A DNA stretch of 64,000 nt from a virus. The position numbers were made by a program, and so were the translations under genes. The notes under the pieces are model-generated. The model saw nothing but the letters and a program-made list of their open reading frames with translations, was not told the origin of the DNA and did not search any database. This document shows, one piece after another, positions 7,726 to 52,673 of this stretch (the first letter of the stretch is position 1; each line of letters begins with the position of its first letter). The stretch is taken from IMG/VR virus record IMGVR_UViG_3300027708_000059; one strand, 5' to 3'.

Positions 7726-8975
7726 TATAAATATTGTTTGAATATATTTGTCATTCCATCAAATTCATCTATTAGGAATGCTGTAACTTCTGCTTTGGAC
7801 ATTGTGTGACCGTTCTTATCATCCCAAAGACTTTTAGCGTTTGAGAAAGAAGGAATTTGATAAAACTTAATTCCATTAAAATCATGACTCACTTCATGAT
7901 GTTTATCTCCAGTGAATATGTAGAAATTGGAATGATCACTCCAAGAATCTCTATATTCCATTGGAAACAATGCTGCAAGTTTAGCTGGTTTAATTGCATC
8001 TCCATGATTAAACATTAATGCTGATTCACCATAGCTTACGTATTTTCTATATTTAGGAGAACCATCAAATGTAACTCTAGGTTCATTTCTAAAATATGTT
8101 TGTAACCAACTAACTAAATGCCATCCTACATATTCATCATGATTTCCAGCTACATATATAATTTCTACATCATTTGAGTATTGTAGCAACAGTGATGTCA
8201 TTAACACCTCATGTTCACAGATTAGTTTAAATGAATCTTGATATGAACATATGTTCTGTTGAGGAGTTCCTTTGGTGGTCATATTTGTCCACTCACTATT
8301 AAACTCATCAGAACCAATTATATATTTAATTTGAGAAAGATTATTAGACATATTAGCTTGTGCTAATATAACTTCCACCTTATACATGATAGTTGCAAAT
8401 CTATCATAAATATTATTATTTCCATCTATATCATGTTTGTTTAGATGGCTATCTTGTTTATTGATAATAATACAACCATTTCTTTTTGCTGGAGTATATT
8501 TTACCTCAACCATTTCTGGAGAGACTGGTTCATATGTAGATAGGAATTCTACAAATGCATCCTGAAAAACTTCTTCTGTTTTCTTCTTACCTAACCAAGC
8601 TTTAACTTGCCAATGAGGTGTTTCGCCATTACCCCAATAGTTCTGGACATATTTAGTTATTTCCCATTTAGATGTATCAATATTACATTTTTCAATCAAT
8701 TCATCTAGACTCTTAATTTCATTCTTGGAATTGATAACAACTTCTCCTGTTCCCTTTATAAGATCTTCTTCATATTTTAATATCTGTTCCTCTAGTTCAT
8801 TAATATAAACTCCAACCTCAGCATCATCTTGTACAGTTTCTCTATTTCTTAATTCATTTAATAATTCATCAACCTCATTTTCTGTAATTCCAAGCTTTTC
8901 AGCATAGAACTTTTTACTTTTTTTCCAACCTAAAAGTTTTTCAAGTTGTTGTAACAGTTGTTGATTTTCTGACAT
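7725..8975 (-). CDS. calcineurin-like metallophosphoesterase domain protein
   Basis: C-terminal half carries metallophosphatase motifs (YVAGNHDE ... MFNHGDA). Preceded by its own terminator, so it starts a transcription unit. Confidence 0.55.
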   Translation of the reverse strand: MSENQQLLQQLEKLLGWKKSKKFYAEKLGITENEVDELLNELRNRETVQDDAEVGVYINELEEQILKYEEDLIKGTGEVVINSKNEIKSLDELIEKCNIDTSKWEITKYVQNYWGNGETPHWQVKAWLGKKKTEEVFQDAFVEFLSTYEPVSPEMVEVKYTPAKRNGCIIINKQDSHLNKHDIDGNNNIYDRFATIMYKVEVILAQANMSNNLSQIKYIIGSDEFNSEWTNMTTKGTPQQNICSYQDSFKLICEHEVLMTSLLLQYSNDVEIIYVAGNHDEYVGWHLVSWLQTYFRNEPRVTFDGSPKYRKYVSYGESALMFNHGDAIKPAKLAALFPMEYRDSWSDHSNFYIFTGDKHHEVSHDFNGIKFYQIPSFSNAKSLWDDKNGHTMSKAEVTAFLIDEFDGMTNIFKQYL

Positions 8976-14023: not shown

Positions 14024-14755
14024 TTACTCGTTTGTTTGTATTCTATATTGTGCAGACTGTACAGCAGGAGCATTCTCTGTATACATTGCAAGATTTTGTA
14101 CTGTAAGGTCTAGAAGTTCATCTTCCAGATATAATTCTAATTCACAGTCTTGATCAAATGATGGTTCACCATCTAACATTATATATCCTTCTTTATTTAT
14201 ATATTTAGGATATCTCATGTAGCTCAAATATATTTTAGTTGGTGTAAATGTACCATCTGTAAATATACTTATCTCATCTGAAGAAAGAAAGTTAAATGTT
14301 TCTTGATATTCAAATGATGGTTTATAATGATCATTTGTTAATATGAGAGAAAGATCACCATGCTTTGCTAATTCTCTATTAATCCAAAGTTTCCTATCTT
14401 TACATCTTCCTTTATCAGCCAATACATAACTATCTATATAGAACATGTATTTAGGTACTAAAACATTTGTTGGAGCAAACCATTGATTTAACTCAAGGTT
14501 CTTTATCTTTAAATCTAAAGGTTGGTTATTGTAAGTAACTACAAGACTTTGAAGATCTTCATAACGCTTTTTAAAAGCGTCAAGTCCTAATCCTGAAATT
14601 GTACTTTGACCATCAACCTTTTGTTTTATCAGCTTTATCTGAGCTTCATTTAAAGCTAAAATTTTATCTTCTAAAGGAATTTGCTGATGTTCGTTTGTTG
14701 ATAGTTTATTTAATTTCTGATCGATCTTATATAATAAACTATCTACTGGTATCAT
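14024..14755 (-). CDS. hypothetical structural protein
   Basis: ORF whose start overlaps the upstream gene. Confidence 0.4.
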   Translation of the reverse strand: MIPVDSLLYKIDQKLNKLSTNEHQQIPLEDKILALNEAQIKLIKQKVDGQSTISGLGLDAFKKRYEDLQSLVVTYNNQPLDLKIKNLELNQWFAPTNVLVPKYMFYIDSYVLADKGRCKDRKLWINRELAKHGDLSLILTNDHYKPSFEYQETFNFLSSDEISIFTDGTFTPTKIYLSYMRYPKYINKEGYIMLDGEPSFDQDCELELYLEDELLDLTVQNLAMYTENAPAVQSAQYRIQTNE

Positions 14756-27880: not shown

Positions 27881-28081
27881 ATGAACAAACAATTTCTATT
27901 ACAAATGCTTGAATTATCAAACACTAACAGACCATTTAAATATGTAAGTGAGTTATTGTTACAAATAGCTGTTGATCCTGAGCTTGATGATAATGTATCT
28001 ATTGATGATTTTGATAATGAGTTCTATTCAGTTAGGAGTATTAGCTGGATTAAACAATGTTTCAATTTTAATTTAAAATAA
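27881..28081 (+). CDS. hypothetical early protein
   Basis: ORF preceded by the CACACA motif. Confidence 0.4.
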   Translation: MNKQFLLQMLELSNTNRPFKYVSELLLQIAVDPELDDNVSIDDFDNEFYSVRSISWIKQCFNFNLK

Positions 28082-28111
28082 TATTAATTAAACCTTATAA
28101 ATCAATTAGTT

Positions 28112-28483
28112 ATGAATGCAGCAATAGAATTTAACAGTTTTGTTACAGGTAAACCAGATGTTATATGTGCTTATGTAAGAAAGGTAAATTATGGTGAAGA
28201 TCATTATAATGTAAGTCTTCCATTGGGATATACAGAGGAACAATATGCTAATTTTATGCTTGATCTAGATTTTACATATGATAATGGATTTGGAGGACAA
28301 GAAGTAGATGGTGAAATATGGTTTAAAGATGGTACATGGGCTGATAGGGGAGAATATGATGGTTCAGAATGGTGGAACTATCATAAATGTCCTAAAGTAC
28401 CAACATTTCTTTATCCTTTAGAAGAAGAATTACCTTTTGATCAGGCAAATTATTGGGATGGTGATGAAACATCTAAACAATAA
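28112..28483 (+). CDS. hypothetical early protein
   Basis: ORF preceded by the conserved TTATAAATCAATTAGTT-ATG element. Confidence 0.45.
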   Translation: MNAAIEFNSFVTGKPDVICAYVRKVNYGEDHYNVSLPLGYTEEQYANFMLDLDFTYDNGFGGQEVDGEIWFKDGTWADRGEYDGSEWWNYHKCPKVPTFLYPLEEELPFDQANYWDGDETSKQ

Positions 28484-28523
28484 TTTTAAACAACAATTAT
28501 AAATCATTAAACTACAATTAGTT

Positions 28524-28676
28524 ATGAAAAAAGATTATTCAATACAGTTAATAATAATGTTAATATTTGGAGCATTGTTATTTATAATAGCAACAAGTTC
28601 TTGTTCTGTAAATAGAGGAGGATATAAAGCTCCTAAAACATGGCATTGTGTAGTTGGTAAACATCAATTGAGATGA
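28524..28676 (+). CDS. tiny secreted/membrane peptide (50 aa)
   Basis: MKKDYSIQLIIMLIFGALLFIIATSSCS... Signal peptide followed by Cys. Preceded by the conserved upstream element. Coordinates +/-2. Confidence 0.3.
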   Translation: MKKDYSIQLIIMLIFGALLFIIATSSCSVNRGGYKAPKTWHCVVGKHQLR

Positions 28677-28719
28677 TAATTTCAAATAAATATTATAAAC
28701 AATTATAAATCAATCAATT

Positions 28720-28947
28720 ATGAAAGAAAGTTTAGAAAAATTCACAGCCATTATATTTGATGGTAAAATAGACATCAATGATTTCTATCATGCTAGCTTT
28801 ACAGATAGATGTATTAGATTCCAGGGTAAAGCTAATAGTGATGTAATACATAAATACAAGGATGCAGGTTGGAAATTCACATTAGATGATAGTGCTACTA
28901 TTATAGAAGGTGATATGGATAATGTATCTTTAATATTCACATTTTAA
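28720..28947 (+). CDS. hypothetical early protein
   Basis: ORF preceded by the conserved upstream element. Confidence 0.4.
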   Translation: MKESLEKFTAIIFDGKIDINDFYHASFTDRCIRFQGKANSDVIHKYKDAGWKFTLDDSATIIEGDMDNVSLIFTF

Positions 28948-28959
28948 TATATTCCATAT

Positions 28960-29136
28960 ATGAGAAAGTATATTAATATAATAATGGGCATTGTTATGTT
29001 CATTGTTACAACAGCATTAATTGGATGTATTATATATTTCACTAATCCAACCATATTATCAATAGCACTAATATGTGTTATATCTGGAGTTGGGTATATA
29101 ATTTCTTATTTATTTATCACTGATTATTTAAATTAA
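28960..29136 (+). CDS. tiny two-TM membrane peptide (58 aa)
   Basis: MRKYINIIMGIVMFIVTTALIGCIIYF... followed by a second hydrophobic helix. Confidence 0.3.
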   Translation: MRKYINIIMGIVMFIVTTALIGCIIYFTNPTILSIALICVISGVGYIISYLFITDYLN

Positions 29137-29142
29137 ATCATT

Positions 29143-29262
29143 ATGAAAGATCATCAATTAGAAAAAGTTAAAAGAATAGAAGTGAGTATTAAGCTATTTG
29201 GCTTAATTCTCGTTCTCACATCGTTCATTTATTTATTACTTTACATTAAATTTGCAAAATAA
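29143..29262 (+). CDS. tiny single-TM peptide (39 aa)
   Basis: MKDHQLEKVKRIEVSIKLFGLILVLTSFIYLLLYIKFAK. Its stop overlaps the next ATG. Confidence 0.25.
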   Translation: MKDHQLEKVKRIEVSIKLFGLILVLTSFIYLLLYIKFAK

Positions 29263-29390
29263 TGAAAGCATTAATTATTATTTCAATATTAGCCATATTG
29301 TTTACATCATGTAGACCAACTAGAGGTTGTCCTGCATATGATAAAACATTTTGGTATAGAATGGGTGGATCTCGTCCATTTTTAAGATAG
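29262..29390 (+). CDS. tiny lipoprotein-like peptide (42 aa)
   Basis: MKALIIISILAILFTSC... (signal peptide plus Cys), followed by a T9 run. Confidence 0.3.
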   Translation: MKALIIISILAILFTSCRPTRGCPAYDKTFWYRMGGSRPFLR

Positions 29391-29488
29391 TCGTTTTTTT
29401 TTATTAGCAGTTAAAAAGGACTCTGGGTATTTCTATACCTGGAGCCATTTTTATTCATTTATTCACACACATTAAAAAATTATTAATT

Positions 29489-29626
29489 ATGAGTACAATC
29501 ACTCTTACACCAATTGAGTTTGATCTATTCAAGGACATTGCAGACTTTTATTTTGACTTCACTGTTAAAATGGGAATTGTACATGTTATAGCTAGCACAG
29601 AAATGTTAGCTAAGCTTGGATATTAA
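29489..29626 (+). CDS. small hypothetical protein (45 aa)
   Basis: ATG about 27 nt after the third copy of the TTCACACACATTAAA motif. Confidence 0.3.
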   Translation: MSTITLTPIEFDLFKDIADFYFDFTVKMGIVHVIASTEMLAKLGY

Positions 29627-29680
29627 TTCATTAAAGACTATCTTTGTATTTTACAGAGGTAGTCTTTTAAATCTTAAATT

Positions 29681-30184
29681 ATGAGTGATTTTATACCAGC
29701 TAGATTAGTACCAAAGAGCTATAAGCCTTTGAAACTAGAAAAAGGAATGTTCTTTGTTACAATAAAGAACAATGCTATTCATTTACATACACTTAATTTT
29801 GTTCCTAAGGATGTAGAATTATATACCCAATTAAATGGAATGCCTGTTGAATTATATATAGTTTATGAAGGCAATTCAAATCTTAATGAGTTTGAAATCT
29901 TAGCAACACCAGAACAAATAGGTTGGTTTGATGATGGTGATTATTCTGATGAGATATCAGATATTACAATTAGACAAATCAACATTATATTCTCTGAGCA
30001 TGAAGGATTTATAAATCTTGAATATGATATAGATGCAGATAAACCTGTATTATATGATAATAAAGTGACTATGAGATTTATAAATGACTCTGGACCTATA
30101 GATTTTGATGATTGGGAAGATTTTGATGAGGATGATCAAGATAATAATGAGAATGATTTTGAAGATAGATTAATTAACGAATAA
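29681..30184 (+). CDS. acidic early protein
   Basis: C-terminal DFDDWEDFDEDDQDNNENDFED tail. Confidence 0.5.
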   Translation: MSDFIPARLVPKSYKPLKLEKGMFFVTIKNNAIHLHTLNFVPKDVELYTQLNGMPVELYIVYEGNSNLNEFEILATPEQIGWFDDGDYSDEISDITIRQINIIFSEHEGFINLEYDIDADKPVLYDNKVTMRFINDSGPIDFDDWEDFDEDDQDNNENDFEDRLINE

Positions 30185-30195
30185 ATTTCATATAT

Positions 30196-30384
30196 ATGGA
30201 ACAATTAGAAAAAGCAATAGAGAAAGTATATTATATGTTCTTTCTAAGAAAAGAAAGAGATAACAGTAGAATAACAGGTAAGTTTAACACTGTACATCCT
30301 CCAAGAAAACCATCATACCAACAATGGTGTAGAGAATTTAATGTATCAATGCTCCATAATAGAGTGATTGTACATATGGACTAA
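30196..30384 (+). CDS. hypothetical protein
   Basis: ORF. Confidence 0.35.
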   Translation: MEQLEKAIEKVYYMFFLRKERDNSRITGKFNTVHPPRKPSYQQWCREFNVSMLHNRVIVHMD

Positions 30385-30460
30385 TTCAGGTGTGTGGATA
30401 GTAAATATGCCCTCAACATTAATTTGTTGGGGGCTTTTTATTTAACTTAAATCAATTAAA

Positions 30461-30649
30461 ATGGATAATACACAATTAAATAGGCTATTAAATGCAGCCT
30501 GCGAAATCATTATTTTGTTAGAACATCATGCTGATACATATATTGCAAATAAGATTGAAGCTTTGTTTCAAGAAATAAAATATTCAGATAACTTAGATGC
30601 TGATATGGAAGCACAAGATTGGGAAACTTTTAAAGAAAACAAAATATGA
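30461..30649 (+). CDS. hypothetical protein
   Basis: ORF overlapping the next start (ATGA). Confidence 0.35.
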   Translation: MDNTQLNRLLNAACEIIILLEHHADTYIANKIEALFQEIKYSDNLDADMEAQDWETFKENKI

Positions 30650-31044
30650 AAAAGCTAATAACATTAGTTATTACAATGGTAATAACAATAACAATTTATG
30701 CACAAGACAGTACAGTGTTAAAATCAGAAGCTCAGAAAATGTGTACTTGGAATGACACATTAAGAGATTGGAACTGTCCTGATGTTTTATACAAAGAAGT
30801 AGCAATTGTATTAAAGAATGAGGTGTTCTATGTAAATGATGAATATAATTCAAAATATAAATTGACTTCCAAGGGTGATTTAACAAAGTATGATGAGTAC
30901 AATTTAATTGTTTTCAATAATGTAATTGACAAAGATGGTGAAAGATGTGTTTTGTCTATGATTACACTTGTAAATGGTAATACGTCAATGTACATTGATT
31001 ACAAAAATAAACAATTGAGATATTTTTTCAATATCCCAAATTAA
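30646..31044 (+). CDS. secreted protein (signal peptide)
   Basis: N-terminal MKKLITLVITMVITITIYAQ. Confidence 0.45.
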   Translation: MKKLITLVITMVITITIYAQDSTVLKSEAQKMCTWNDTLRDWNCPDVLYKEVAIVLKNEVFYVNDEYNSKYKLTSKGDLTKYDEYNLIVFNNVIDKDGERCVLSMITLVNGNTSMYIDYKNKQLRYFFNIPN

Positions 31045-31074
31045 ACATTAAATCAAAATTTAAACTAGAAAGCC

Positions 31075-31629
31075 ATGGCAACAAAATTATCTTACAAAAA
31101 CGCAACAGAAAAGAAAGAAGTTAGAGATTTTTTATTCTCTTTATTTGCAAAACATCATTTTAATAAAATAGTTGGATTACCTGGTCCAGATATAAATGAT
31201 TATATATCGTTTTGTAAATCACATGGGTATAAGAAGTTTAAAATGTATGAAATGGATGCTGTTATTCTTAAGAAACAGTTAAAAAAGATTAAAACACACA
31301 GAGCATCATTAATACATGGAGACATAATCAAAGCTAATCCTAATAGAAAAGATGTACTCTATGATCTTGATTATTGCGTAACTGTTAGATATATGAAGGA
31401 ACATATTGAAAAATTCAATAATAACTTCATTATGACATTTAGCAGAAGAATCAAAGACATTGAAACTATTACATCATTCTTTCAGGCAAAAGATGAAGAG
31501 GTTATATCTATTGTTACAAAGTTCTACCCAAGAGAACATAAGATTTACAAGACAGATAAAGGAAATGAATACATATATATTAATTACAGAGATACATCTA
31601 ATATGTGTTGTATAGCTAAAATAAATTAA
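31075..31629 (+). CDS. hypothetical protein
   Basis: 184-aa ORF. Confidence 0.45.
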   Translation: MATKLSYKNATEKKEVRDFLFSLFAKHHFNKIVGLPGPDINDYISFCKSHGYKKFKMYEMDAVILKKQLKKIKTHRASLIHGDIIKANPNRKDVLYDLDYCVTVRYMKEHIEKFNNNFIMTFSRRIKDIETITSFFQAKDEEVISIVTKFYPREHKIYKTDKGNEYIYINYRDTSNMCCIAKIN

Positions 31630-31631
31630 TT

Positions 31632-32138
31632 ATGCCTACAATAGATATTCCAGATAAGATATGTTCTCATTGTGGTGGTATTAGATGGATAACTAAAAAA
31701 CAAAAATATGTTCGAAAAAATGGAAGTATTGGCGAAAGTATTGCAATGATATGTAATGTTATACAAAATGATTATGAAAAAAAATATAATGCTAAAAATT
31801 CTGATAAAAGAAAACTTGTTTATAAAAAATATCACAATAAATTAAAAGATGATTTAGAATATAAAGAAAAAAATAAAAAACGTTCAAAATTATGGCGTGC
31901 ATCTCATCCTGAAAAAAGTAAACAATCTTCTGTTTTGTTTAGATTAAATAATGAAATAAAAATTAAAAAGTGGAAAAAAGAATATAATAATAAATCTACA
32001 ACAGAATTAAATGACTATTATGTTAAAAAATTAATTAAGCAAGATACAATTTTAAATTCTAAAGATATACCACAAAAACTTATAGAATTAAAACGAAAAC
32101 AATTATTATTAACAAGAAAATCAAAACAAAATGGCTAA
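31632..32138 (+). CDS. Lys-rich zinc-finger protein
   Basis: N-terminal CSHCGG, followed by a highly basic repeat region. Confidence 0.45.
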   Translation: MPTIDIPDKICSHCGGIRWITKKQKYVRKNGSIGESIAMICNVIQNDYEKKYNAKNSDKRKLVYKKYHNKLKDDLEYKEKNKKRSKLWRASHPEKSKQSSVLFRLNNEIKIKKWKKEYNNKSTTELNDYYVKKLIKQDTILNSKDIPQKLIELKRKQLLLTRKSKQNG

Positions 32139-32376
32139 AATTAAAAAAGTACAAACAGTAATAGAAACAGCAGTAAAAACAGAATTTATTGATGATGTTA
32201 GAAGAGCATTACAAAACTTTGGAGATTCTAATGCAACATTATATAATGAAACAAAAGATCTTAAAGTGTGTCAAACAGCTATAAAAGCTTATAACTCAGC
32301 CATTAATGCTGCTAAAACACAAATTATTTACAAGAAAATTACTGGAACTCCAGCAGAAATTCCATTTTTATCATAA
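32131..32376 (+). CDS. hypothetical protein
   Basis: ORF overlapping the upstream stop. Confidence 0.4.
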   Translation: MAKIKKVQTVIETAVKTEFIDDVRRALQNFGDSNATLYNETKDLKVCQTAIKAYNSAINAAKTQIIYKKITGTPAEIPFLS

Positions 32377-32393
32377 TTAAAAACCCACACACC

Positions 32394-32606
32394 ATGGCAA
32401 CATTAGTATGGAGTAGCAAAGACTACTCAAGACATCACATTCAAGTGTCAGAAACAAATGACAATGTAAATAAGCTAATGAATAGCATATTTACTTATTC
32501 CAGGGAAAAGAGTGAGAGGATATTTGTTAGTAATAACAGATATTATTATGCTCCAAGCCCAGAATACAAAGCATTCGTAGTTAGATTTAAAGGAATTAAA
32601 AAATAA
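32394..32606 (+). CDS. hypothetical protein
   Basis: ORF. Confidence 0.35.
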   Translation: MATLVWSSKDYSRHHIQVSETNDNVNKLMNSIFTYSREKSERIFVSNNRYYYAPSPEYKAFVVRFKGIKK

Positions 32607-32612
32607 TAAAAA

Positions 32613-32987
32613 GTGAAACACAAATTTATAAAAACAGAAGATATATGGTATATTGACTTACCAGAATTTATTGAACAAGGATTAGGTACCAAAGCTAATT
32701 TAATGATGGTTGCAGGAGCAGATGTAATGTTAGACATTCTATCTAATGATGGAAATGAAATCACATTAGAATTTTCTAGTGAACCAATTGAAGGTAGCCA
32801 ACATACATTAGTCAAACAAAGATTTGGTTTAGATAAAGAACTATTAAGTAAAATAGGACATGCACCTGTAGATTATGGTGCTTATTATAACTGGAAAGAA
32901 AATAACAGTCAATCTGTTTGGTTATGTCCTGTTACAGAATATGTATTTAATGGAGCATATCCAGAAAAAATATACGTAAAAGTTTAA
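32613..32987 (+). CDS. hypothetical protein
   Basis: ORF. Confidence 0.45.
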   Translation: MKHKFIKTEDIWYIDLPEFIEQGLGTKANLMMVAGADVMLDILSNDGNEITLEFSSEPIEGSQHTLVKQRFGLDKELLSKIGHAPVDYGAYYNWKENNSQSVWLCPVTEYVFNGAYPEKIYVKV

Positions 32988-32988
32988 T

Positions 32989-33165
32989 ATGGAACTAATT
33001 TTCAATTGGTGCGTAGATGTATTAATATTCCTAGCCAATGTGCTAGGAATAACATACAAAGAGATTAATGTATGGATATTCTGTATAATAGAACCTATTG
33101 TATTTATATACATGTTAACATTAATTATTAAACAAAACAGATATATTAAAAGAATTATAAACTAA
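32989..33165 (+). CDS. tiny membrane peptide (58 aa)
   Basis: ATG one base after the upstream stop. Sequence MELIFNWCVDVLIFLANVLGITY... Coordinates +/-2. Confidence 0.3.
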   Translation: MELIFNWCVDVLIFLANVLGITYKEINVWIFCIIEPIVFIYMLTLIIKQNRYIKRIIN

Positions 33166-33469
33166 TCACAACCTGTCGTGATCCAAATCTTAATTAGATC
33201 ATTTGCCCTTGCACCCTTGTCTCAGGGTTGGGATAAACATAGATTACTTGACTTTCTTCTTCTAATTAAGATGTATGAGGTCTTTTTAAAGATAAAGTAA
33301 TCAGGGAGGTTTCTCTGTACCAGAACAGAAGCTTATTGATCATTGTTTATAGGTCTTTAGTTGGTTCTACCCTAACTATTGATCTATAAATGATGATTTA
33401 TTGATTGATAAATTATGGCTGATATGGCGGATATATGGCGGATTAAAATCATTTTGTTGACATCACCAA

Positions 33470-33502
33470 TATGATGAAATATAGTTGTATATTTGTCAAA
33501 TT
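33470..33502 (+). promoter_or_regulatory. promoter-like element (TTGACA-17 nt-TATAGT, then TATATTTG)
   Basis: Read directly in the sequence. Its function is uncertain in a Bacteroidota context. Confidence 0.3.
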
Positions 33503-33599
33503 CAGTAGTATGACTACTGATATATGAGAAAAAGTAAACCAATAGCTTTACCAATAGGTATGTTTAGTAAAGATATAGCTTTACATATTATGAGCTATT

Positions 33600-33880
33600 T
33601 AGTTTACATAATAAATGATTAATCCACCAAAAAGTGCCTTATATGACACATTATGATGTATTTATGCGACATTTAAGACACATTATCATACCAAAAAGTG
33701 CATTATACGACACTTTAAGCAACATAAAAATTAGAAATATAAATCTAAAAACATAAAAATTAGGCGCAAAAGAATATAAATAGGAGCAAATTAGAAATAT
33801 ATATCTAAAAGTATACGCAATAGGGTATAAATAGACAGAATATTAAGAATTTATATGCTAAAGGGTATAAACCGTTCCAA
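33600..33880. repeat. iteron-like direct repeat cluster
   Basis: CCAAAAAGTGC(C/A)TTATA(T/C)GACAC occurs twice, GACACATTAT twice, TTAGAAATATA(A/T)ATCTAAAA twice, and GGGTATAAA twice. No ORF spans the region. Confidence 0.5.
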
Positions 33881-33908
33881 TTTGTCACACCTTCAAATAA
33901 ATTAAATT

Positions 33909-34142
33909 ATGGATCATCCAGTAACAATATTAAGAAATAGATTAATTAAAATAGGTATAACCATTGAAATGGTTAGTAACTATCCATGGATATACTTAGA
34001 TAAGGTTAATGGTAATGTAGTGAAGGAAAAATACTTTGCTAATCATGGCTTTACAATAGGATTTAATCCTGCAAAAGTGGGAGATGTATTTAGTTACACT
34101 GATCTTAAAGAAATATTTAAAATTATTAGAAAATATAAATAA
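33909..34142 (+). CDS. hypothetical protein
   Basis: ORF immediately after the repeat region. Confidence 0.4.
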   Translation: MDHPVTILRNRLIKIGITIEMVSNYPWIYLDKVNGNVVKEKYFANHGFTIGFNPAKVGDVFSYTDLKEIFKIIRKYK

Positions 34143-45464: not shown

Positions 45465-45638
45465 ATGAAACAGAAAGAAAATAACTTATTTGATCTAATT
45501 GAAGCTATTGAAGATAATATTGAATGGCTAGAGACATTAGAAGAAGATGAAATAGAATGTATATCTATTGAGAATTTAGAAGGAATATTAAGCAAATTTT
45601 TTAACAAAACAATTAAAATCAATAAAGATGGCAAATAA
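45465..45638 (+). CDS. small acidic protein (57 aa)
   Basis: MKQKENNLFDLIEAIEDNIEWLETLEEDE... Overlaps the next start by about 11 nt. Coordinates +/-2. Confidence 0.3.
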   Translation: MKQKENNLFDLIEAIEDNIEWLETLEEDEIECISIENLEGILSKFFNKTIKINKDGK

Positions 45639-46437
45639 AATAGAAGTTTACACAACAACAAAAGATTTATTATTAGCAGCACCTGTTCCACAAGATACAA
45701 GAACATATAAAGCTGTAAGTCATGGTCAATTAATTGATCTAACATTGAATAGTATTGAGAAAGCTGGATTTACACTAGACAAAGAGATATATAGTTCTAG
45801 TAGAGGTGGAAGTGTAGCTAATGGTAGATTTAGTATTAGTAATGTAGCTGATAGTGAAATGCAATTACAAATAGGCTGGCAGAATAGCTATGACAAAACT
45901 TTGACATTAAAGTTTGCTATGGGCACACGTATATTCATTTGTCAAAATGGTTGTGTATCTGGAGATATGGGAGCATTCAAGAAGAAGCACCAAGGAGTTA
46001 TTCAAGATTTCACACCTGGAGCAATTTCTGAATATATCAAACAAGCTGGAGATTCTTTTGTAAGCATGCAGAAAGAAAGAGAAGAAATGAAGCAAATCGA
46101 AATCACCAAGAGAATCAAAGCTGAATTGATTGGTAGAATGATGATTGAAGAAAGCTTCATCACCTCAACACAGATGAACATCATCATGAGAGAATTAGAT
46201 GCTCCTACACATGATTATAATGCTAAAGATAGTCTTTGGGAGTTGTATAATTATACAACATTTGCTATGAAAGAGTCTCATCCAACATTATGGATGGACA
46301 CTCACATGAAAGCACATAGTTTCTTTGTTAATGAGAGTGGATCTATTATATCTCCAACAAAAGAATATAATTATGAGCCTACAGAGATGTACAAACAAGT
46401 TGAAATAGATTGGAATCACGCTGAAATATTAAGTTAA
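45628..46437 (+). CDS. hypothetical protein
   Basis: 269-aa ORF. Confidence 0.4.
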   Translation: MANKIEVYTTTKDLLLAAPVPQDTRTYKAVSHGQLIDLTLNSIEKAGFTLDKEIYSSSRGGSVANGRFSISNVADSEMQLQIGWQNSYDKTLTLKFAMGTRIFICQNGCVSGDMGAFKKKHQGVIQDFTPGAISEYIKQAGDSFVSMQKEREEMKQIEITKRIKAELIGRMMIEESFITSTQMNIIMRELDAPTHDYNAKDSLWELYNYTTFAMKESHPTLWMDTHMKAHSFFVNESGSIISPTKEYNYEPTEMYKQVEIDWNHAEILS

Positions 46438-46438
46438 T

Positions 46439-47155
46439 ATGAATTTTGAGAAATTTAAAGAATCTTTTCATGAGAGCTGGCATAATAAAATGCAACCTTT
46501 CATAGAAAGTGAGGAGTGTGATGCTATTTATAAATTTCTAAAAGCTGAAAGTCAGAGGGGCAAGAAGATTGCCCCTCTTTCTTCTAATGTCTATAGATGT
46601 TTTGCAGAAACTCCTTTAGATGATGTAAAGGTGGTCTTGCTAGGTATGTGTCCCTATCATACACTAAAAAGTGGTAATCCTGTAGCTGATGGACTATTAA
46701 TGGGTTGTAGAAACACAATGGAACTACAGCCATCATTAAAACAGTTTTATGACGCTATAGAGAGAGAAGTATATGAAGGACTAACATTAAATGCATACAA
46801 AGATCCAGATGTCACTCATCTAGCAAAAAAGGGTGTATTGATGTTAAATGCTGCTTTAACAACAGAAATAAACAAAGCAGGCTCTCATATAGAATTATGG
46901 GAACCATTTACAAAGTATTTATTTGAACATGTATTAACACATTCAGGAGCACCAGTGATATTTCTAGGCAAAGATGCAGCTAAATATGAGAAATATTCAA
47001 ATCCATTCACATGGTCATTTAAACTATCTCATCCAGCATCTGCTAGTTACAAAAATACACAATGGGATACAGAGGGTGTATTTACAAAGGTTAATAAGAT
47101 AATTAAAGAAAACAACAATTTTACCATCGAATGGTTGAATATTCTACCATTTTAA
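46439..47155 (+). CDS. uracil-DNA glycosylase (family 1-like)
   Basis: WHNKMQPF ... DVKVVLLGMCPYH ... GLLMGC matches the UNG water-activating loop (GQDPYH) and surrounding pattern. Confidence 0.7.
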   Translation: MNFEKFKESFHESWHNKMQPFIESEECDAIYKFLKAESQRGKKIAPLSSNVYRCFAETPLDDVKVVLLGMCPYHTLKSGNPVADGLLMGCRNTMELQPSLKQFYDAIEREVYEGLTLNAYKDPDVTHLAKKGVLMLNAALTTEINKAGSHIELWEPFTKYLFEHVLTHSGAPVIFLGKDAAKYEKYSNPFTWSFKLSHPASASYKNTQWDTEGVFTKVNKIIKENNNFTIEWLNILPF

Positions 47156-47665: not shown

Positions 47666-48033
47666 GAACATTAAAATACGGAGGAGATCTTCAAATAGGA
47701 GATTTTATTGGAGTAAGTGTTAATAATTGTATGGATTTTGGATGGTATTGTGGTGATGGTATAAATAAAACATTACAATATTATACTATATGGGCTCCTA
47801 AAGTTAGATATGAAGATTATGAAGCATGGAAAAAACTTCCAGAGGACAAAAATCCTGGGGCTTATAAGAATGGATGGACAATAAAATGTTTGTATAAATC
47901 ATATATAAACACTGTACATGATACAAGAGTGATAAAAATTCTTCATCCAGAAGATATATTTACAAATAAAGCAGATAGAGAAGCATACGAAAAGTCAAAA
48001 GAAGTATTAATTAAGTTAAATTTCATCAAATGA
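47662..48033 (+). CDS. hypothetical protein
   Basis: ORF with ATGA overlap to the GHKL gene. Confidence 0.4.
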   Translation: MRTLKYGGDLQIGDFIGVSVNNCMDFGWYCGDGINKTLQYYTIWAPKVRYEDYEAWKKLPEDKNPGAYKNGWTIKCLYKSYINTVHDTRVIKILHPEDIFTNKADREAYEKSKEVLIKLNFIK

Positions 48034-50366
48034 TATTAGAAAAACAAACAGAAGCCACCATTTTAGAAACAGGAGATTCATCAGAATCAATTGGTATGTC
48101 ATTAGACTTAGATTCTGCTCAGATATTGATGCAGATGTTAAGTAAGAATCTATATTCAGATTCAATAGGCTCCACTATCAGAGAATGTGCATCTAATGCA
48201 CTTGATAGTCATAGAAGAGCTGGTGTTGACAAACCTATAGTTGTAGGATTTAAGAAGAACAAAGAAGACAATTATGAATTCACTGTAGAAGATTTTGGTA
48301 TAGGCTTAGATGCTGATGATGTACGTAATATTATTAGTAAATACGGTAAATCTACCAAAAGGAATAGTAATACAGAATTGGGTATGATGGGACTTGGTTT
48401 TAAGGCTCCTCTTGCTTATAGTTCTAGTTTCTATTTTGTATGTAGGAAAGATGGTATGGAGAGGAAATACATGATGTATGAAGGTGAAGACACCAACAGC
48501 ATTGATCTTCTTTATGAAGCTTCTACAACAGAAGAAAATGGTGTAAAGATCATTATTCCAGTTAACTACTATGATAGAAGTGCATTCACCAGGAAGATTA
48601 AGGAGCAGTTGGCTTATTTTGAGAGTGTTTATTTTGATTGTGAGGATAATGTAAACAATGATTTTATCATCCACAGAAGTGAACATTTCCAATTCTCTGA
48701 ACTATCTAGTAGTGATTATTTACACATATCTCTAGACAATGTCTACTATCCTATTGATTTCGATAAACTAGGAATCAAAGAAAGGATAGACTTTCCTGTA
48801 GCATTGAGGTTTAGTCTTACAGATGGGTTATTTCCCACTCCAAACAGAGAATCCATTAGATATACCAAGGAAGCTAAACAAATCATCCTAGATAAGATAA
48901 GGAAGGTGGCTGATTTCTATGCTAATAAGTATAATGAGACTATGGTTGAAACAGATGATGTTACGGCTGTATTTAAACATTTCTCTGAATCTCGAAGGTA
49001 TGTAAAAGGATTCAAAAAAGATTCATCATTAAATATTAGCAATTTACATGAGTGGTGTTCTATAAAGCTTCTAAGTCCTACATTGAAAGGTGTTAAACTC
49101 TTAGATCTTGAGAGAGTTAATTTCATAAGAGAGCATCTTCTTCAGGAATATGAGATAAAGCATAGTGTTTCTAATAACAGAATAAAAGAAGCAAAGAGAA
49201 GCTATGATCAAGTGATTAATACATCAGACATAGACAGACATAAACTTTACATATATTCTGATAAAATCTCTGGTGCAAAGAAAAACTATTTGAAATCTAT
49301 TCATACTGGAAGATGGGAGAATGAAGGTAAACTAGTTAAGAGAAAACATACATCTGTTACATTAGGAAGTGTTTTACGTACCACTAATTATAAAACATAT
49401 GTAACATTACTAGAGCTTAAAAAACATCCAAAATCTGAATGGAGAGATAGAATTAAAGAATATCAACATATTGTATCCCTGTTAACTAATAATTTTATTA
49501 ATCTTGATGAGATGGTTATTCCTGATATATGGATAAAAAACAACACAAGAGCAAAAGCAGTTATCACTGGAACAACTGGTGGTGGTGTAAGAAGAGTTAA
49601 ACTAGCAGGAGAGATTGTTGGTAAAGAAGGCACACCATTAGAGAGATATGTAGATGGTAAAAACTGTAAATGGGTGAGTGTAACCTATAAACTAGAGGAA
49701 ATACATCGCATGAAACACCTTGTTGTATATGGTGGAGATGCTGATGTAGCTAAAATGGATAAATTGTTTAGTATTGTTGCAGGCAACAGGATGAAAACAA
49801 AGATTAAATTTATTCAGTTCTCAGAAAGGGAACTAAAGAATCTAGAAAAAATAGACATTCACAATTGGGTAAAACTTGAAACATTTATGGAAGGTAAAAA
49901 CAAACCATTCAAAAGACTAATCACTGCATATCTTATTCATCAATTAATGAGGAAAAATGAGGATGTGTTTGAGAAGAAACAACAACTTATGGGCATTTCT
50001 GGTGATCTCTATCTAAAACTTGATTTATTAGAAGAATACAAGGGTAAATATTTTTGTTATGCAAATGAAGACATATATAGTGCAATGTTAGAAATAGCTA
50101 ACGCTAACAATTTGTTCGATGGAGAGATATATCCTATATATAAGGAAATTAAAACTCTTACAGAGAAACTTACATTCTTACAACCATTATGTGATAAGCT
50201 TTCTTATTATCGTAATGAGAAAGATCCAATTCTAGATGCTATTGCAGATTTGTTCAAATATTACAGAACAAGAATAGATTGGAAAAACTACAACATTAAG
50301 TTGACAGAAGAAAAGTTGTTAGAGAAAGAGCTAACAGAAGAAAACGTTGAAGAATTAATAGACTAA
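48030..50366 (+). CDS. HSP90/HtpG-family GHKL ATPase (778 aa)
   Basis: LYSDSIGSTIRECASNALDS, EDFGIGL, ISKYGKST, GMMGLGFKAP, and middle-domain-like VNFIREHLLQ (cf. NVSREILQ). Confidence 0.65.
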   Translation: MILEKQTEATILETGDSSESIGMSLDLDSAQILMQMLSKNLYSDSIGSTIRECASNALDSHRRAGVDKPIVVGFKKNKEDNYEFTVEDFGIGLDADDVRNIISKYGKSTKRNSNTELGMMGLGFKAPLAYSSSFYFVCRKDGMERKYMMYEGEDTNSIDLLYEASTTEENGVKIIIPVNYYDRSAFTRKIKEQLAYFESVYFDCEDNVNNDFIIHRSEHFQFSELSSSDYLHISLDNVYYPIDFDKLGIKERIDFPVALRFSLTDGLFPTPNRESIRYTKEAKQIILDKIRKVADFYANKYNETMVETDDVTAVFKHFSESRRYVKGFKKDSSLNISNLHEWCSIKLLSPTLKGVKLLDLERVNFIREHLLQEYEIKHSVSNNRIKEAKRSYDQVINTSDIDRHKLYIYSDKISGAKKNYLKSIHTGRWENEGKLVKRKHTSVTLGSVLRTTNYKTYVTLLELKKHPKSEWRDRIKEYQHIVSLLTNNFINLDEMVIPDIWIKNNTRAKAVITGTTGGGVRRVKLAGEIVGKEGTPLERYVDGKNCKWVSVTYKLEEIHRMKHLVVYGGDADVAKMDKLFSIVAGNRMKTKIKFIQFSERELKNLEKIDIHNWVKLETFMEGKNKPFKRLITAYLIHQLMRKNEDVFEKKQQLMGISGDLYLKLDLLEEYKGKYFCYANEDIYSAMLEIANANNLFDGEIYPIYKEIKTLTEKLTFLQPLCDKLSYYRNEKDPILDAIADLFKYYRTRIDWKNYNIKLTEEKLLEKELTEENVEELID

Positions 50367-50369
50367 TTA

Positions 50370-50400
50370 AAAAGGGGGAGATATTCTCCCCCTTTCACAT
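50370..50400 (+). terminator. rho-independent terminator
   Basis: GGGGGAGA-tatt-TCTCCCCC followed by TTTCACATTT. Confidence 0.65.
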
Positions 50401-50416
50401 TTAAAACAAAAACAAC

Positions 50417-51973
50417 ATGAGTATCAGTTTCAATTGGTTCAAATCCAAAAAAGTACAAGAGTTACAAGATTTACAGATTGAGGAACAGAGGATCAAAAAT
50501 GACCTCTTACGTAAAGATTTATTTAAAACACCTTTCCCAGACACAATTAGTGTCAACATTGTAAGCAGTGAACCTAAAGTTGAGCCTAAAGAAGATTTAG
50601 ACAACAAGCCCTATCTAAATGTAAAACTAGTGAATGATGTGCTCACCATTGTTCTAAAAGATGGTAGCATAATTACAAAGCCTGGAGCTACAGCTGATGA
50701 TTTCAAAAGAGCTAGAGCATGTTTTACAGAGAACATGTTAATTGATCTTGTTGCTACACAGGAAGTGGTGCAAGAAAGAAAAGAAAGAGAAGATGAAGTT
50801 AAAAGGTTTAAAGCTATTCACAAAGGTTTTGAACTTTTGAGCAAGTTTAGCCATTTTAGAGTGGAGGGTAATTCTGTCTATCTATCTGGAATAAATAGAA
50901 GTCTTCCTCAATTACTAATAGAAAGATTTATAGAGATTGTAGACAGTTATAGCGATTTCTCCCAACCATATGCAGAAAAGTTGTTGTTACAAAATGATGA
51001 GTTCGTTGGACTAAAGAGGTTCTTTATGTGGGCTTGTCTAAATCCAAGAGTAGAAGTGGCAAACAGCTTATTTGATTTCCTAAGTAAAAATGGTATGAAG
51101 ATCACTAAACAAGGATTCTTTGTAGCATTGAGAAATGTTGTAACATCTCATGGATCTGCTGAACTAGTTCATTTCATTAGCAATGCTTATAATAAAGTGA
51201 AAGCTGTATGGAAGAAATCTCCAGCTGATTATCATGTATTCCTAGAGAATGGTGCATATAAAATGGTTCACACTGATTCCTTAACTTACACTATGATAGA
51301 AGATTGTGATAGATGTGATGGTTCTGGAACAACTTTTGAATATGATGAAGAATATGATGATCATGGTCATTGTTATGAGTGCGATGGTAAAGGTGATGTA
51401 GAAGTTACCTATCATAAAGACAATGGTCAATTGATTGGTAATCTAACAGAACTATATCTTGATCTTCCTAATAGATCAGAGAATAGATTTACAGACAACT
51501 GGACAAGAACATTTGATATTCGCATTGGACAAGTGGTGAGTATGCCAAGTGAGAATTGTGATTGGAGTACACAAGATTGTGCTACAGCAGGATTACACTT
51601 TGCTGGTCATACAGCTCCTTATGTTCTATGTGGTGATACAACAGTTTTCACTCTTCACAATCCTATGAAAGTTGTGGGTATTGGTACAGAGAAGGGTAGA
51701 TGCTGGGAATATCTTCCATTTATGACTACAAATGTTACTGAAGCAAATGAAATCATGAATGATAAAGATTTTGATTTCTTACAGCTAGATGAAGCATATG
51801 CAATTCGTGAATTGGAAAATCTTGCTGAGAAAGCTAAAGAAGGTTTCCAAACAGAAACTAGCAAGCATGATTTCAATCTGCCAAGTATTTCTGTAAATGA
51901 AATTAACAATATTGTAAAATCTCTAGATGAAATGAAAAGTGAAATTTCAAGTAGAGTGAGCAATATTGATTAA
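50417..51973 (+). CDS. protein with DnaJ-type CxxCxGxG zinc-finger repeats (518 aa)
   Basis: CDRCDGSG and CYECDGKG lie 20 residues apart. A further Cys cluster is CDWSTQDC...C. Flanked by terminators on both sides. Confidence 0.5.
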   Translation: MSISFNWFKSKKVQELQDLQIEEQRIKNDLLRKDLFKTPFPDTISVNIVSSEPKVEPKEDLDNKPYLNVKLVNDVLTIVLKDGSIITKPGATADDFKRARACFTENMLIDLVATQEVVQERKEREDEVKRFKAIHKGFELLSKFSHFRVEGNSVYLSGINRSLPQLLIERFIEIVDSYSDFSQPYAEKLLLQNDEFVGLKRFFMWACLNPRVEVANSLFDFLSKNGMKITKQGFFVALRNVVTSHGSAELVHFISNAYNKVKAVWKKSPADYHVFLENGAYKMVHTDSLTYTMIEDCDRCDGSGTTFEYDEEYDDHGHCYECDGKGDVEVTYHKDNGQLIGNLTELYLDLPNRSENRFTDNWTRTFDIRIGQVVSMPSENCDWSTQDCATAGLHFAGHTAPYVLCGDTTVFTLHNPMKVVGIGTEKGRCWEYLPFMTTNVTEANEIMNDKDFDFLQLDEAYAIRELENLAEKAKEGFQTETSKHDFNLPSISVNEINNIVKSLDEMKSEISSRVSNID

Positions 51974-52033: not shown

Positions 52034-52453
52034 ATGATTAGAAAGAAAAAAGCAGCCCCTAAGAAAGTTGCAAAGAAAAGAATAGCTGCTCCCAAGACTA
52101 GAAATGCTGGCACAATGAGTGAAAGTGCTTTCTGGAGTTTTATACGTAGTGGTCTTAGACAAAAATCAAGATGGTGGAAACCTATTACACAATGCAAAAT
52201 GTTAGCTAAAAGAGTTTACAAAGGACCTAATAAGCGACAAAGATTTGAATATCAATGCAATGAGTGTAAGAATTGGTTTATTGAAAAGAAAGTTAACGTA
52301 GATCATATTATAGGAGCAGGTTCATTGAAGTGTGCTAACGATCTTCCAGGGTTTGTAGAAAGGTTATTCTGTGAAATTGACAACTTACAAGTCTTATGTG
52401 AGAATTGTCACAATATTAAAACTCAAAACGATAAAAATGGAACAGAAAAGTGA
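52034..52453 (+). CDS. HNH endonuclease
   Basis: VDHII ... NLQVLCENCHNIKT (HNH H-N-H pattern with a Cys pair). Basic N-terminus. Confidence 0.55.
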   Translation: MIRKKKAAPKKVAKKRIAAPKTRNAGTMSESAFWSFIRSGLRQKSRWWKPITQCKMLAKRVYKGPNKRQRFEYQCNECKNWFIEKKVNVDHIIGAGSLKCANDLPGFVERLFCEIDNLQVLCENCHNIKTQNDKNGTEK

Positions 52454-52673
52454 AATTAGTATTAACAAAACACCATCATTCTGTGAGAATTGGCATGAAG
52501 GATATGTAGAATATCAAGGTAGACAACACAAGTTCTGGCTAATAAATCCAAAAAGAATTAATCCAGAAGATTACGATTATGAATTAGAAGTGAGATGGTT
52601 CTTTAAAAACGTTCCTACGGAAGTTAGAATGATGTACTCACTAATTGTTGAATCATTTAAACAAAAAATATGA
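52437..52673 (+). CDS. hypothetical protein
   Basis: Internal ATG of the 52371 ORF overlaps the HNH stop. Confidence 0.35.
   Translation: MEQKSEISINKTPSFCENWHEGYVEYQGRQHKFWLINPKRINPEDYDYELEVRWFFKNVPTEVRMMYSLIVESFKQKI

Follow-up and report, generated by a model that had tools for sequence, protein, structure and literature searches.

A T4 rIIA homologue with a GHKL ATP-binding domain and its rIIB-like partner in a genome segment of an uncultured phage

The rIIA and rIIB genes and the hairpin between them

The DNA considered here (the window) is a stretch of 64,000 nt from a virus, IMG/VR record IMGVR_UViG_3300027708_000059. Its subject is a 778-aa protein encoded on the + strand at 48030-50366, together with the 518-aa product of the gene that follows at 50417-51973. 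A preliminary description, made from the sequence without database searches, had placed the first gene correctly, as an open reading frame (ORF) of 778 codons from ATG to stop on the + strand, but had taken its product for a phage-encoded chaperone of the Hsp90/HtpG family. Judged by profile, pairwise and predicted-structure comparisons (PHROGs, BLASTP, hhalign and Foldseek), the protein is a homologue of T4 rIIA and not a phage Hsp90 chaperone. It consists of an N-terminal GHKL ATPase domain, a transducer-like domain and a C-terminal half that varies within the family.

The identification as rIIA rests on several searches. Against the PHROGs profiles the protein matched phrog_612 'RIIA' with E=1.2e-54 over residues 1-470, and further matches were to five more RIIA families and to phrog_609, which is labelled RIIB. 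T4 rIIA (NP_049616), whose family takes in PHROGs 612 and 2979 among others, was found by BLASTP with E=2e-17, collinear and with residue 1 on residue 1, and hhalign of a close-homologue profile against T4 rIIA gave a probability of 97.4% and E=1.3e-11 for residues 10-353. With tblastn, genes annotated as rIIA were matched in 2606 phage records, which include 910 of Escherichia phages (T4-like) as well as phiCbK-like Caulobacter phages and Streptomyces phages, and many metagenomic orthologues share 55-96% identity. An AlphaFold2 model of the protein (predicted local distance difference test score 77.7), compared with BFVD by Foldseek, gave full-length matches to predicted rIIA structures with E values from 1e-27 to ~1e-13, among them those of KVP40, Aeromonas phage 44RR2.8t, Klebsiella phage Marfa, Pseudomonas phage pf16, Caulobacter phage Seuss, Streptomyces phage Bmoc and the crAss-like cr116_1. 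Among relatives with a predicted structure the nearest, with 42% identity, comes from 'Virus NIOZ-UU157' and is uncharacterised. An exhaustive HMMER scan, counted as 50%-identity clusters, put the size of the family at 14,355 (E≤1e-3) or 11,830 (E≤1e-10). The protein is a divergent new member of this very large and well-known family, and the finding is an ordinary one in that rIIA is among the commonest phage proteins and stands here beside its usual partner rIIB. The features of membership that were found are the collinear similarity to T4 rIIA, GHKL motifs I-IV followed by a variable C-terminus, Y240 with the P-x-R-E loop outside the GHKL core, and an adjacent rIIB on the same strand.

The protein and its T4 counterpart have in common an N-terminal strap, GHKL motifs I-IV, the Y-P pair at 240-241 and P-x-R-E at 271-274. 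Their lengths are similar (778 aa here, 725 aa in T4), and in both cases the next gene on the strand is rIIB. As in T4, both proteins are free of transmembrane segments; the highest Kyte-Doolittle score over 19 residues was 0.89 for rIIA and 1.09 for rIIB. The C-terminal ~430 residues, however, cannot be aligned with T4 rIIA by sequence, and the phage is of a crAss-like or Cellulophaga-phage-like lineage instead of the Straboviridae. The rIIA/rIIB cassette is also present in phiCbK, Streptomyces phage Francob, N4-like phages and the crAss-like cr116_1, which belong to unrelated lineages. The phiCbK proteins are of similar size (769 and 542 aa), but global identity is only 19-25% in the multiple alignment and reaches 35.5% over a local N-terminal region.

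The 518-codon ORF at 50417-51973 (+) had been overlooked in the preliminary description. It encodes an rIIB-like protein that matches three RIIB PHROGs, the best being phrog_609 'RIIB' with E=1.6e-11, and that aligns with T4 rIIB in BLASTP with E=1e-6 plus a second collinear high-scoring segment pair. The order of rIIA followed by rIIB on the same strand recurs in phiCbK and in Francob. It is also kept in a syntenic metagenomic relative (L005), whose rIIA and rIIB are 58% and 60% identical to the proteins described here. The RIIB matches and the shared gene order together identify the locus as an rII cassette, a gene pair that ranks among the most widespread in phages.

The rIIB-like protein differs from T4 rIIB in several respects. 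It is longer (518 aa versus 312 aa), and between the two segments that align with T4 rIIB it carries an insert, residues 297-326 (51305-51394, +), with two CxxCxGxG motifs at residues 297 and 319, which has no equivalent in the aligned part of T4 rIIB. T4 rIIB itself has weak and mostly sub-threshold Pfam matches to a helix-turn-helix at its N-terminus, for which no counterpart was found in the protein studied here. The two motifs of the insert, CDRCDGSG and CYECDGKG, are those of a DnaJ-type zinc ribbon, and L005 has CDDCGGDG and CGACEGEG in their place. The ribbon gave sub-threshold matches to Pfam DnaJ_CXXCXGXG and to the NCBIfam models of DnaJ and anti-TRAP.

Between the two genes lies a GC-rich hairpin at 50371-50395 (+) with an 11-bp stem and a 3-nt loop, a folding energy of -18.3 kcal/mol and z=-5.0. 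The preliminary description had called it a strong terminator closing the gene. A stable hairpin is indeed there, but its U-tract on the + strand is weak and it separates rIIA from rIIB instead of marking the end of a unit. The tail on the + strand is only UUUCACAUUU, and the terminator scanner made no + strand call. In L005 a hairpin of different sequence (~8367-8388) occupies the same position between rIIA and rIIB and is followed by a better U-run. The element may set the ratio of rIIA to rIIB, either as a partial terminator or through processing or stability. A promoter scan around the two genes returned fewer sites than shuffled sequence and was uninformative.

ATP-binding site, second domain and C-terminal half

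All five peptides quoted in the preliminary description occur in the protein: LYSDSIGSTIRECASNALDS at residues 41-60, EDFGIGL at 87-93, ISKYGKST at 102-109, GMMGLGFKAP at 118-127 and VNFIREHLLQ at 363-372. The first four form a genuine Bergerat (GHKL) ATP-binding site, so that the assignment to the GHKL ATPases holds, and the alternative that had been offered of a GHKL-type effector pointed in the right direction. Two Pfam models score above their cut-offs over residues 46-147, HATPase_c_3 with 28.7 bits (cut-off 25) and HATPase_c with 26.9 bits (cut-off 26.4). The Bergerat-fold domain spans residues ~42-195 (48153-48614, +).

Conservation was followed in 34 close homologues (55-91% identity) and in 86 diverse rIIA sequences, and the catalytic positions are invariant in both sets. 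Motif I, RECASNALD (48180-48206, +), has the layout R51-E52-x3-N56-x2-D59, and E52, N56 and D59 are invariant in the diverse set; by analogy with GHKL enzymology E52 would be the general base and N56 a Mg2+ ligand, and these two correspond to E47 and N51 in T4 numbering. In motif II, DFGIG (48291-48305, +), D88 is invariant and is the predicted adenine contact, while G90 and G92 are at least 90% conserved. The ATP-lid S108-T-K110 and motif III, G118xxG121xG123xK125, lie at 48351-48404 (+), with K110, G118, G121 and G123 invariant throughout the family; this region aligns with the TopoVI-B lid 'SSK...GMYGLGVK'. The motif IV region is NGVKIIIPV (48537-48563, +), in which G171 is invariant. The GHKL ATP site is complete, comprising E52, N56, D59, D88, G90, G92, K110, G118xxG121xG123 and G171.

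Only 14 positions are invariant among the 86 diverse sequences: M1, Y42, E52, N56, D59, D88, K110, G118, G121, G123, G171, Y240, R273 and E274. Nine of these are residues of the GHKL catalytic site, and the remainder are M1, Y42, Y240 and the R273-E274 pair. From this invariance of the full GHKL catalytic set and of an Arg-Glu pair in the second domain, rIIA is predicted to be an active ATPase with a trans-domain arginine.

This pair lies in the transducer-like second domain (residues 196-330; 48615-49019, +), which is made up of several beta strands, a loop and a long helix. The loop, placed after the strands and before the long helix, contains P271-N-R273-E274 (48840-48851, +) and reads TPNRESIRY here and APSREALSL in T4. 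The sequences that conserve R273 and E274 include those of T4, phiCbK and Francob; P271 and P241, unlike Y240, R273 and E274 in the 86 sequences, are invariant only in an alignment of six sequences. R273 is a candidate trans-domain sensor of the gamma-phosphate. The best local hhalign match of the second domain to HtpG places R273 on R336 of NVSREILQ, but the match is insignificant (E 0.76) and not independent of the likeness that had already been spotted by eye. Equivalence of the P-x-R-E loop with the SRE loop of Hsp90 could not be established, even though the expected residues were aligned. We found no discussion of the P-x-R-E motif of rIIA in the literature searched.

In the preliminary description the catalytic arginine had instead been sought in VNFIREHLLQ (49116-49145, +), given as about 150 residues beyond motif III. 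The peptide exists, but it lies ~240 residues away, and it is not a conserved motif: even among the 34 homologues that are at least 55% identical, position 367 is occupied by R in 22 of them, by K in 11 and by N in one, and the neighbouring positions vary freely. It belongs to the C-terminal half (residues 331-778; 49020-50363, +), which is mixed alpha/beta and then helical in the model, has no confident match to a solved structure and in Foldseek matches only other rIIA models.

Relationship to other GHKL ATPases and proposed role

The preliminary description had regarded an Hsp90/HtpG paralogue as unusual for a phage, and had named as grounds for abandoning this idea an N domain scoring best against another family without an Hsp90 middle-domain match, or a predicted fold lacking the Hsp90 middle and C-terminal dimerisation domains. 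On these grounds the idea fails. In the Pfam comparison that it had suggested, HSP90 (PF00183) gave no match even at E≤10. The NCBIfam Hsp90 model (PRK14083) scored 29.9 bits, where the cut-off is 455, and covered residues 33-121 only, whereas E. coli HtpG, run as a positive control in the same search, scored 861.7 bits. The quoted motifs were also said to separate Hsp90 from other GHKL ATPases, which they do not, since TopoVI-B scores equally well or better: the NCBIfam scores were 33.6 bits for TopoVI-B, 30.3 for sacsin-N and 29.9 for the HSP90 family, all within residues 33-136. Hidden Markov model searches of PDB sequences likewise put TopoVI-B first, with E=0.006 for the single sequence, 1.4e-4 for the close profile and 1.4e-10 for the diverse 86-sequence profile, and with the last of these Hsp90 N domains came second, from 4.9e-7 downward. 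MutL, GyrB and MORC were not among the top 60 PDB matches. Beyond the N domain, Smith-Waterman comparison with the middle and C-terminal region of HtpG stayed below the shuffle means (z -0.7 for residues 191-320 and z -0.3 for 321-778), and domain-specific hhalign profiles gave at most 0.2%. The Hsp90 middle and C-terminal fold, including the C-terminal dimerisation domain, was not found in the model of residues 300-778. A genuine Hsp90/HtpG chaperone paralogue, which would fold replisome or virion proteins or hijack host proteostasis, is thus largely refuted, and we regard it as highly improbable.

Some likeness to Hsp90 nevertheless holds up in the N domain. The diverse rIIA profile (number of effective sequences 5.4) aligned with HtpG in hhalign with 95.2% and E=2.9e-8 over residues 31-180 (HtpG 14-182). 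This alignment extends upstream of motif I over the helix and the 'LYS' there, while MutL (78%) and GyrB (70%) align with the same profile only from motif I on. The weak best matches of T4 rIIA itself in PDB and NCBIfam are also to Hsp90. By these comparisons the rIIA N domain lies at about the same distance from TopoVI-B as from Hsp90, with MutL and GyrB farther away than either. The pattern across hhalign, PDB and NCBIfam therefore puts the GHKL domain of rIIA near Hsp90/sacsin and TopoVI-B instead of the generic histidine-kinase type. With Hsp90, HtpG, TRAP1 and GRP94 it has in common the Bergerat N domain including the helix ahead of motif I ('LYS[DN]...RE..SN..D'), probably a split ATPase in which the second domain supplies a basic residue, and a P-x-R-E loop plus long helix that resembles NxSRExLQ, though not significantly. 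It differs in having no whole-protein model match, no detectable middle or C-terminal dimerisation domain, and a lid of the form S-T-K, as in TopoVI-B, where Hsp90 has GTIAKSGT. Searches of the phage literature for a link between rIIA and Hsp90 brought up only immunology papers on Fc-gamma-RIIA. In UniProt and BFVD the label 'HSP90 family' is attached to K4I3N1 (Escherichia phage EC6, 303 aa) and A0A8S5ULM6 (Myoviridae sp., 837 aa), which match only the N-terminal ~300 residues of the rIIA model. Both are probably GHKL proteins of the rIIA type, short or divergent ones, that are similarly over-annotated, and the Hsp90 reading of the present protein repeats this automated over-annotation. The locus as first described would have meant a phage that owns an Hsp90 chaperone, which is not the case.

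In view of the above, rIIA and rIIB form the rII module of an uncultured, distantly crAss-like or Cellulophaga-phage-like phage, and they probably act in ATP-driven counter-defence against abortive infection of the Rex type. In the proposed mechanism rIIA would bind ATP in the Bergerat pocket, as other GHKL/GHL ATPases do, and would dimerise, probably through the conserved N-terminal strap. The second domain would contribute a residue, most likely R273, to ATP hydrolysis. The ATP cycle, together with rIIB, would then neutralise a Rex-type abortive infection system encoded by the host or a prophage, which would otherwise lead to membrane depolarisation or cell suicide, so that the infection could finish. 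The proposed role is modelled on coliphages, in which divergent rII modules of T4, T6, N4 and other coliphages counteract lambda RexAB. T4 rIIA orthologues have been described as having an N-terminal GHKL ATPase and a variable C-terminal domain with a role in counter-defence (PMC7824862; Iyer et al. 2021). The rIIAB genes let T-even phages overcome lambda RexAB by a mechanism that is unclear, and RIIB, by being sensed, triggers CARD-gasdermin systems (PMC10312443). Knock-down of rII modules that are less than 40% identical (T4, MM02, EdH4, SUSP1 and N4) sensitises each phage to lambda RexAB and is neutral otherwise (PMC11879866), and N4-like phages carry rIIAB (PMC8594841).

Two other roles should be weighed against this one. 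A GHKL ATPase that manipulates DNA, as a TopoVI-B/MutL/MORC-like clamp in phage replication, recombination or repair, would account for TopoVI-B coming first by sequence among solved structures (diverse profile, E=1.4e-10) and scoring 33.6 bits in NCBIfam, and for the neighbouring primase, UDG, HNH nuclease, exonuclease, RNR and UvsX-like recombinase. The TopoVI-B match covers motifs I-III and the lid, the architecture of ATPase plus transducer-like domain is a two-domain one, and in the model 220-282 residues align structurally with the ATPase modules of MutL, ParE and TopoII. T4 rII mutations suppress DNA-ligase defects. The similarity to TopoVI-B is, however, confined to ~85 residues of the ATP-binding core, and neither Pfam nor the model of the C-terminal half showed a Toprim, TopoVI-A-binding, MutL C-terminal or DNA-binding domain. 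The transducer domain of the GHL enzymes (TopoVI-B, GyrB/ParE, MutL, MORC) supplies a conserved Lys to the gamma-phosphate, and the invariant basic residue in the second domain of rIIA is an Arg, R273; rIIA lacks their DNA-gate, Toprim or endonuclease partner domains, its C-terminal half is unrelated, and its neighbour is rIIB. In T4 rIIA is likewise located beside replication genes (topoisomerase genes 60 and 39) without being one. The neutral effect of rIIA/B knock-down in Rex-free hosts for five phages (PMC11879866) argues against a core replication role, and a DNA clamp seems quite improbable. The protein could also be an rIIA homologue concerned with lysis timing or membrane energetics and not with counter-defence, as suggested by the name 'RIIA lysis inhibitor' of PHROGs and RefSeq, the 'rapid lysis' phenotype known from early work and reports that the T4 rII proteins associate with the membrane (T4 annotation note; names in PMC8785237). 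Yet the T4 record ascribes rapid lysis to 'effects of specific prophage', recent work describes the rII module as needed conditionally, against Rex, and as without phenotype where Rex is absent (PMC10312443, PMC11879866, PMC8594841), and the two proteins of the locus have no transmembrane segment. In coliphages, latent period and burst size have been seen to stay unchanged when rII is deleted and the host is free of the defence. A role in lysis in place of counter-defence is thus very improbable, although the two overlap because Rex acts by membrane depolarisation.

Several points weigh against the assignment to anti-Rex counter-defence. The role is carried over from coliphages to an uncultured phage. 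To our knowledge, biochemical ATPase activity has never been shown for any rIIA, and no solved structure of an rIIA came up when the PDB was searched with the protein, T4 rIIA and two profiles. Sequence identity to T4 rIIA is 18-26% and confined to the first ~350 residues, and because the C-terminal halves of rIIA are highly variable the target specificity may differ. A DNA-related role, suggested by the replication and recombination neighbours and the best match to TopoVI-B, is a less likely alternative.

The value of the analysis lies mostly in correct annotation, a long-known rIIA beside rIIB, and it extends the range of the rII counter-defence cassette to an environmental lineage that has crAss-like and Cellulophaga phages among its relatives. 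The set of 14 invariant residues names point mutants with which the ATPase prediction could be examined in T4, and the predicted catalytic Arg of rIIA is the sole forward-looking element. A more far-reaching proposal, which we consider tentative and on balance unlikely, is that rIIA is a viral sister group of the Hsp90-type split ATPases, as the Hsp90-like helix ahead of motif I would suggest, with R273 of the P-x-R-E loop and the long helix after it corresponding to the catalytic-Arg loop around R336 of HtpG, and works as an ATP-gated clamp whose client is a protein, for instance a Rex-like sensor or channel, and not DNA. If true, this would supply concrete mutable catalytic residues for the 70-year-old rII problem and possibly sensitivity to inhibitors.

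Genomic surroundings and phage lineage

The window is a segment of a phage genome with two divergent arms. The - strand arm (867-24007) carries structural and packaging genes, including a 1567-aa virion protein (phrog_37948), the major head protein, portal and terminase, and the + strand arm (28000-62000) carries replication and early genes. The closest relatives of the terminase are found in Leptolyngbya, Cellulophaga, Flavobacterium and crAss-like phages: its identity is 41% with the terminase of Leptolyngbya phage Lbo-JY46 and ~30% with the terminases of Cellulophaga phages phi17:2 and phi4:1 and of crAss-like phages. A megablast search with 20 kb surrounding the rIIA gene gave no match among 50,697 phage records, a collection that therefore contains no close relative of this phage. 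The contig occurs in freshwater and other metagenomes. A literature search on rIIA in crAss-like phages found nothing informative, and no tRNAs were found in the window.

Upstream of the rIIA gene lie a primase gene, a gene for a DUF932 protein and a UDG gene (46439-47155), and downstream come an HNH nuclease (52034-52453), a PD-(D/E)XK-type exonuclease, RNR and a UvsX-like recombinase. The location between UDG and HNH nuclease given in the preliminary description is accurate in outline, but the genes are not directly adjacent: three small ORFs separate UDG from rIIA, and the 518-aa rIIB-like gene stands between rIIA and the HNH gene. The DUF932 gene (45628-46437; Pfam E=4.8e-9) is located between primase and UDG, an arrangement kept in L005.

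The leaders of the two rII genes, at 48000-48032 and 50387-50419, are A-rich and without a Shine-Dalgarno sequence, for example AAAACAAAAACAACATG. Such leaders are typical of Bacteroidota and their phages and give a hint at the host, which is probably a member of the Bacteroidota. The region 28000-34000, just past the strand switch, has the lowest GC content in the window (26-28% versus ~31-34% elsewhere), contains small ORFs only and is probably an early-gene region. The GC skew changes sign near 27 kb. The HNH gene, which directly follows rIIB, overlaps by ~80 nt with a GTG-start ORF of 100 codons in another frame (52371-52673).

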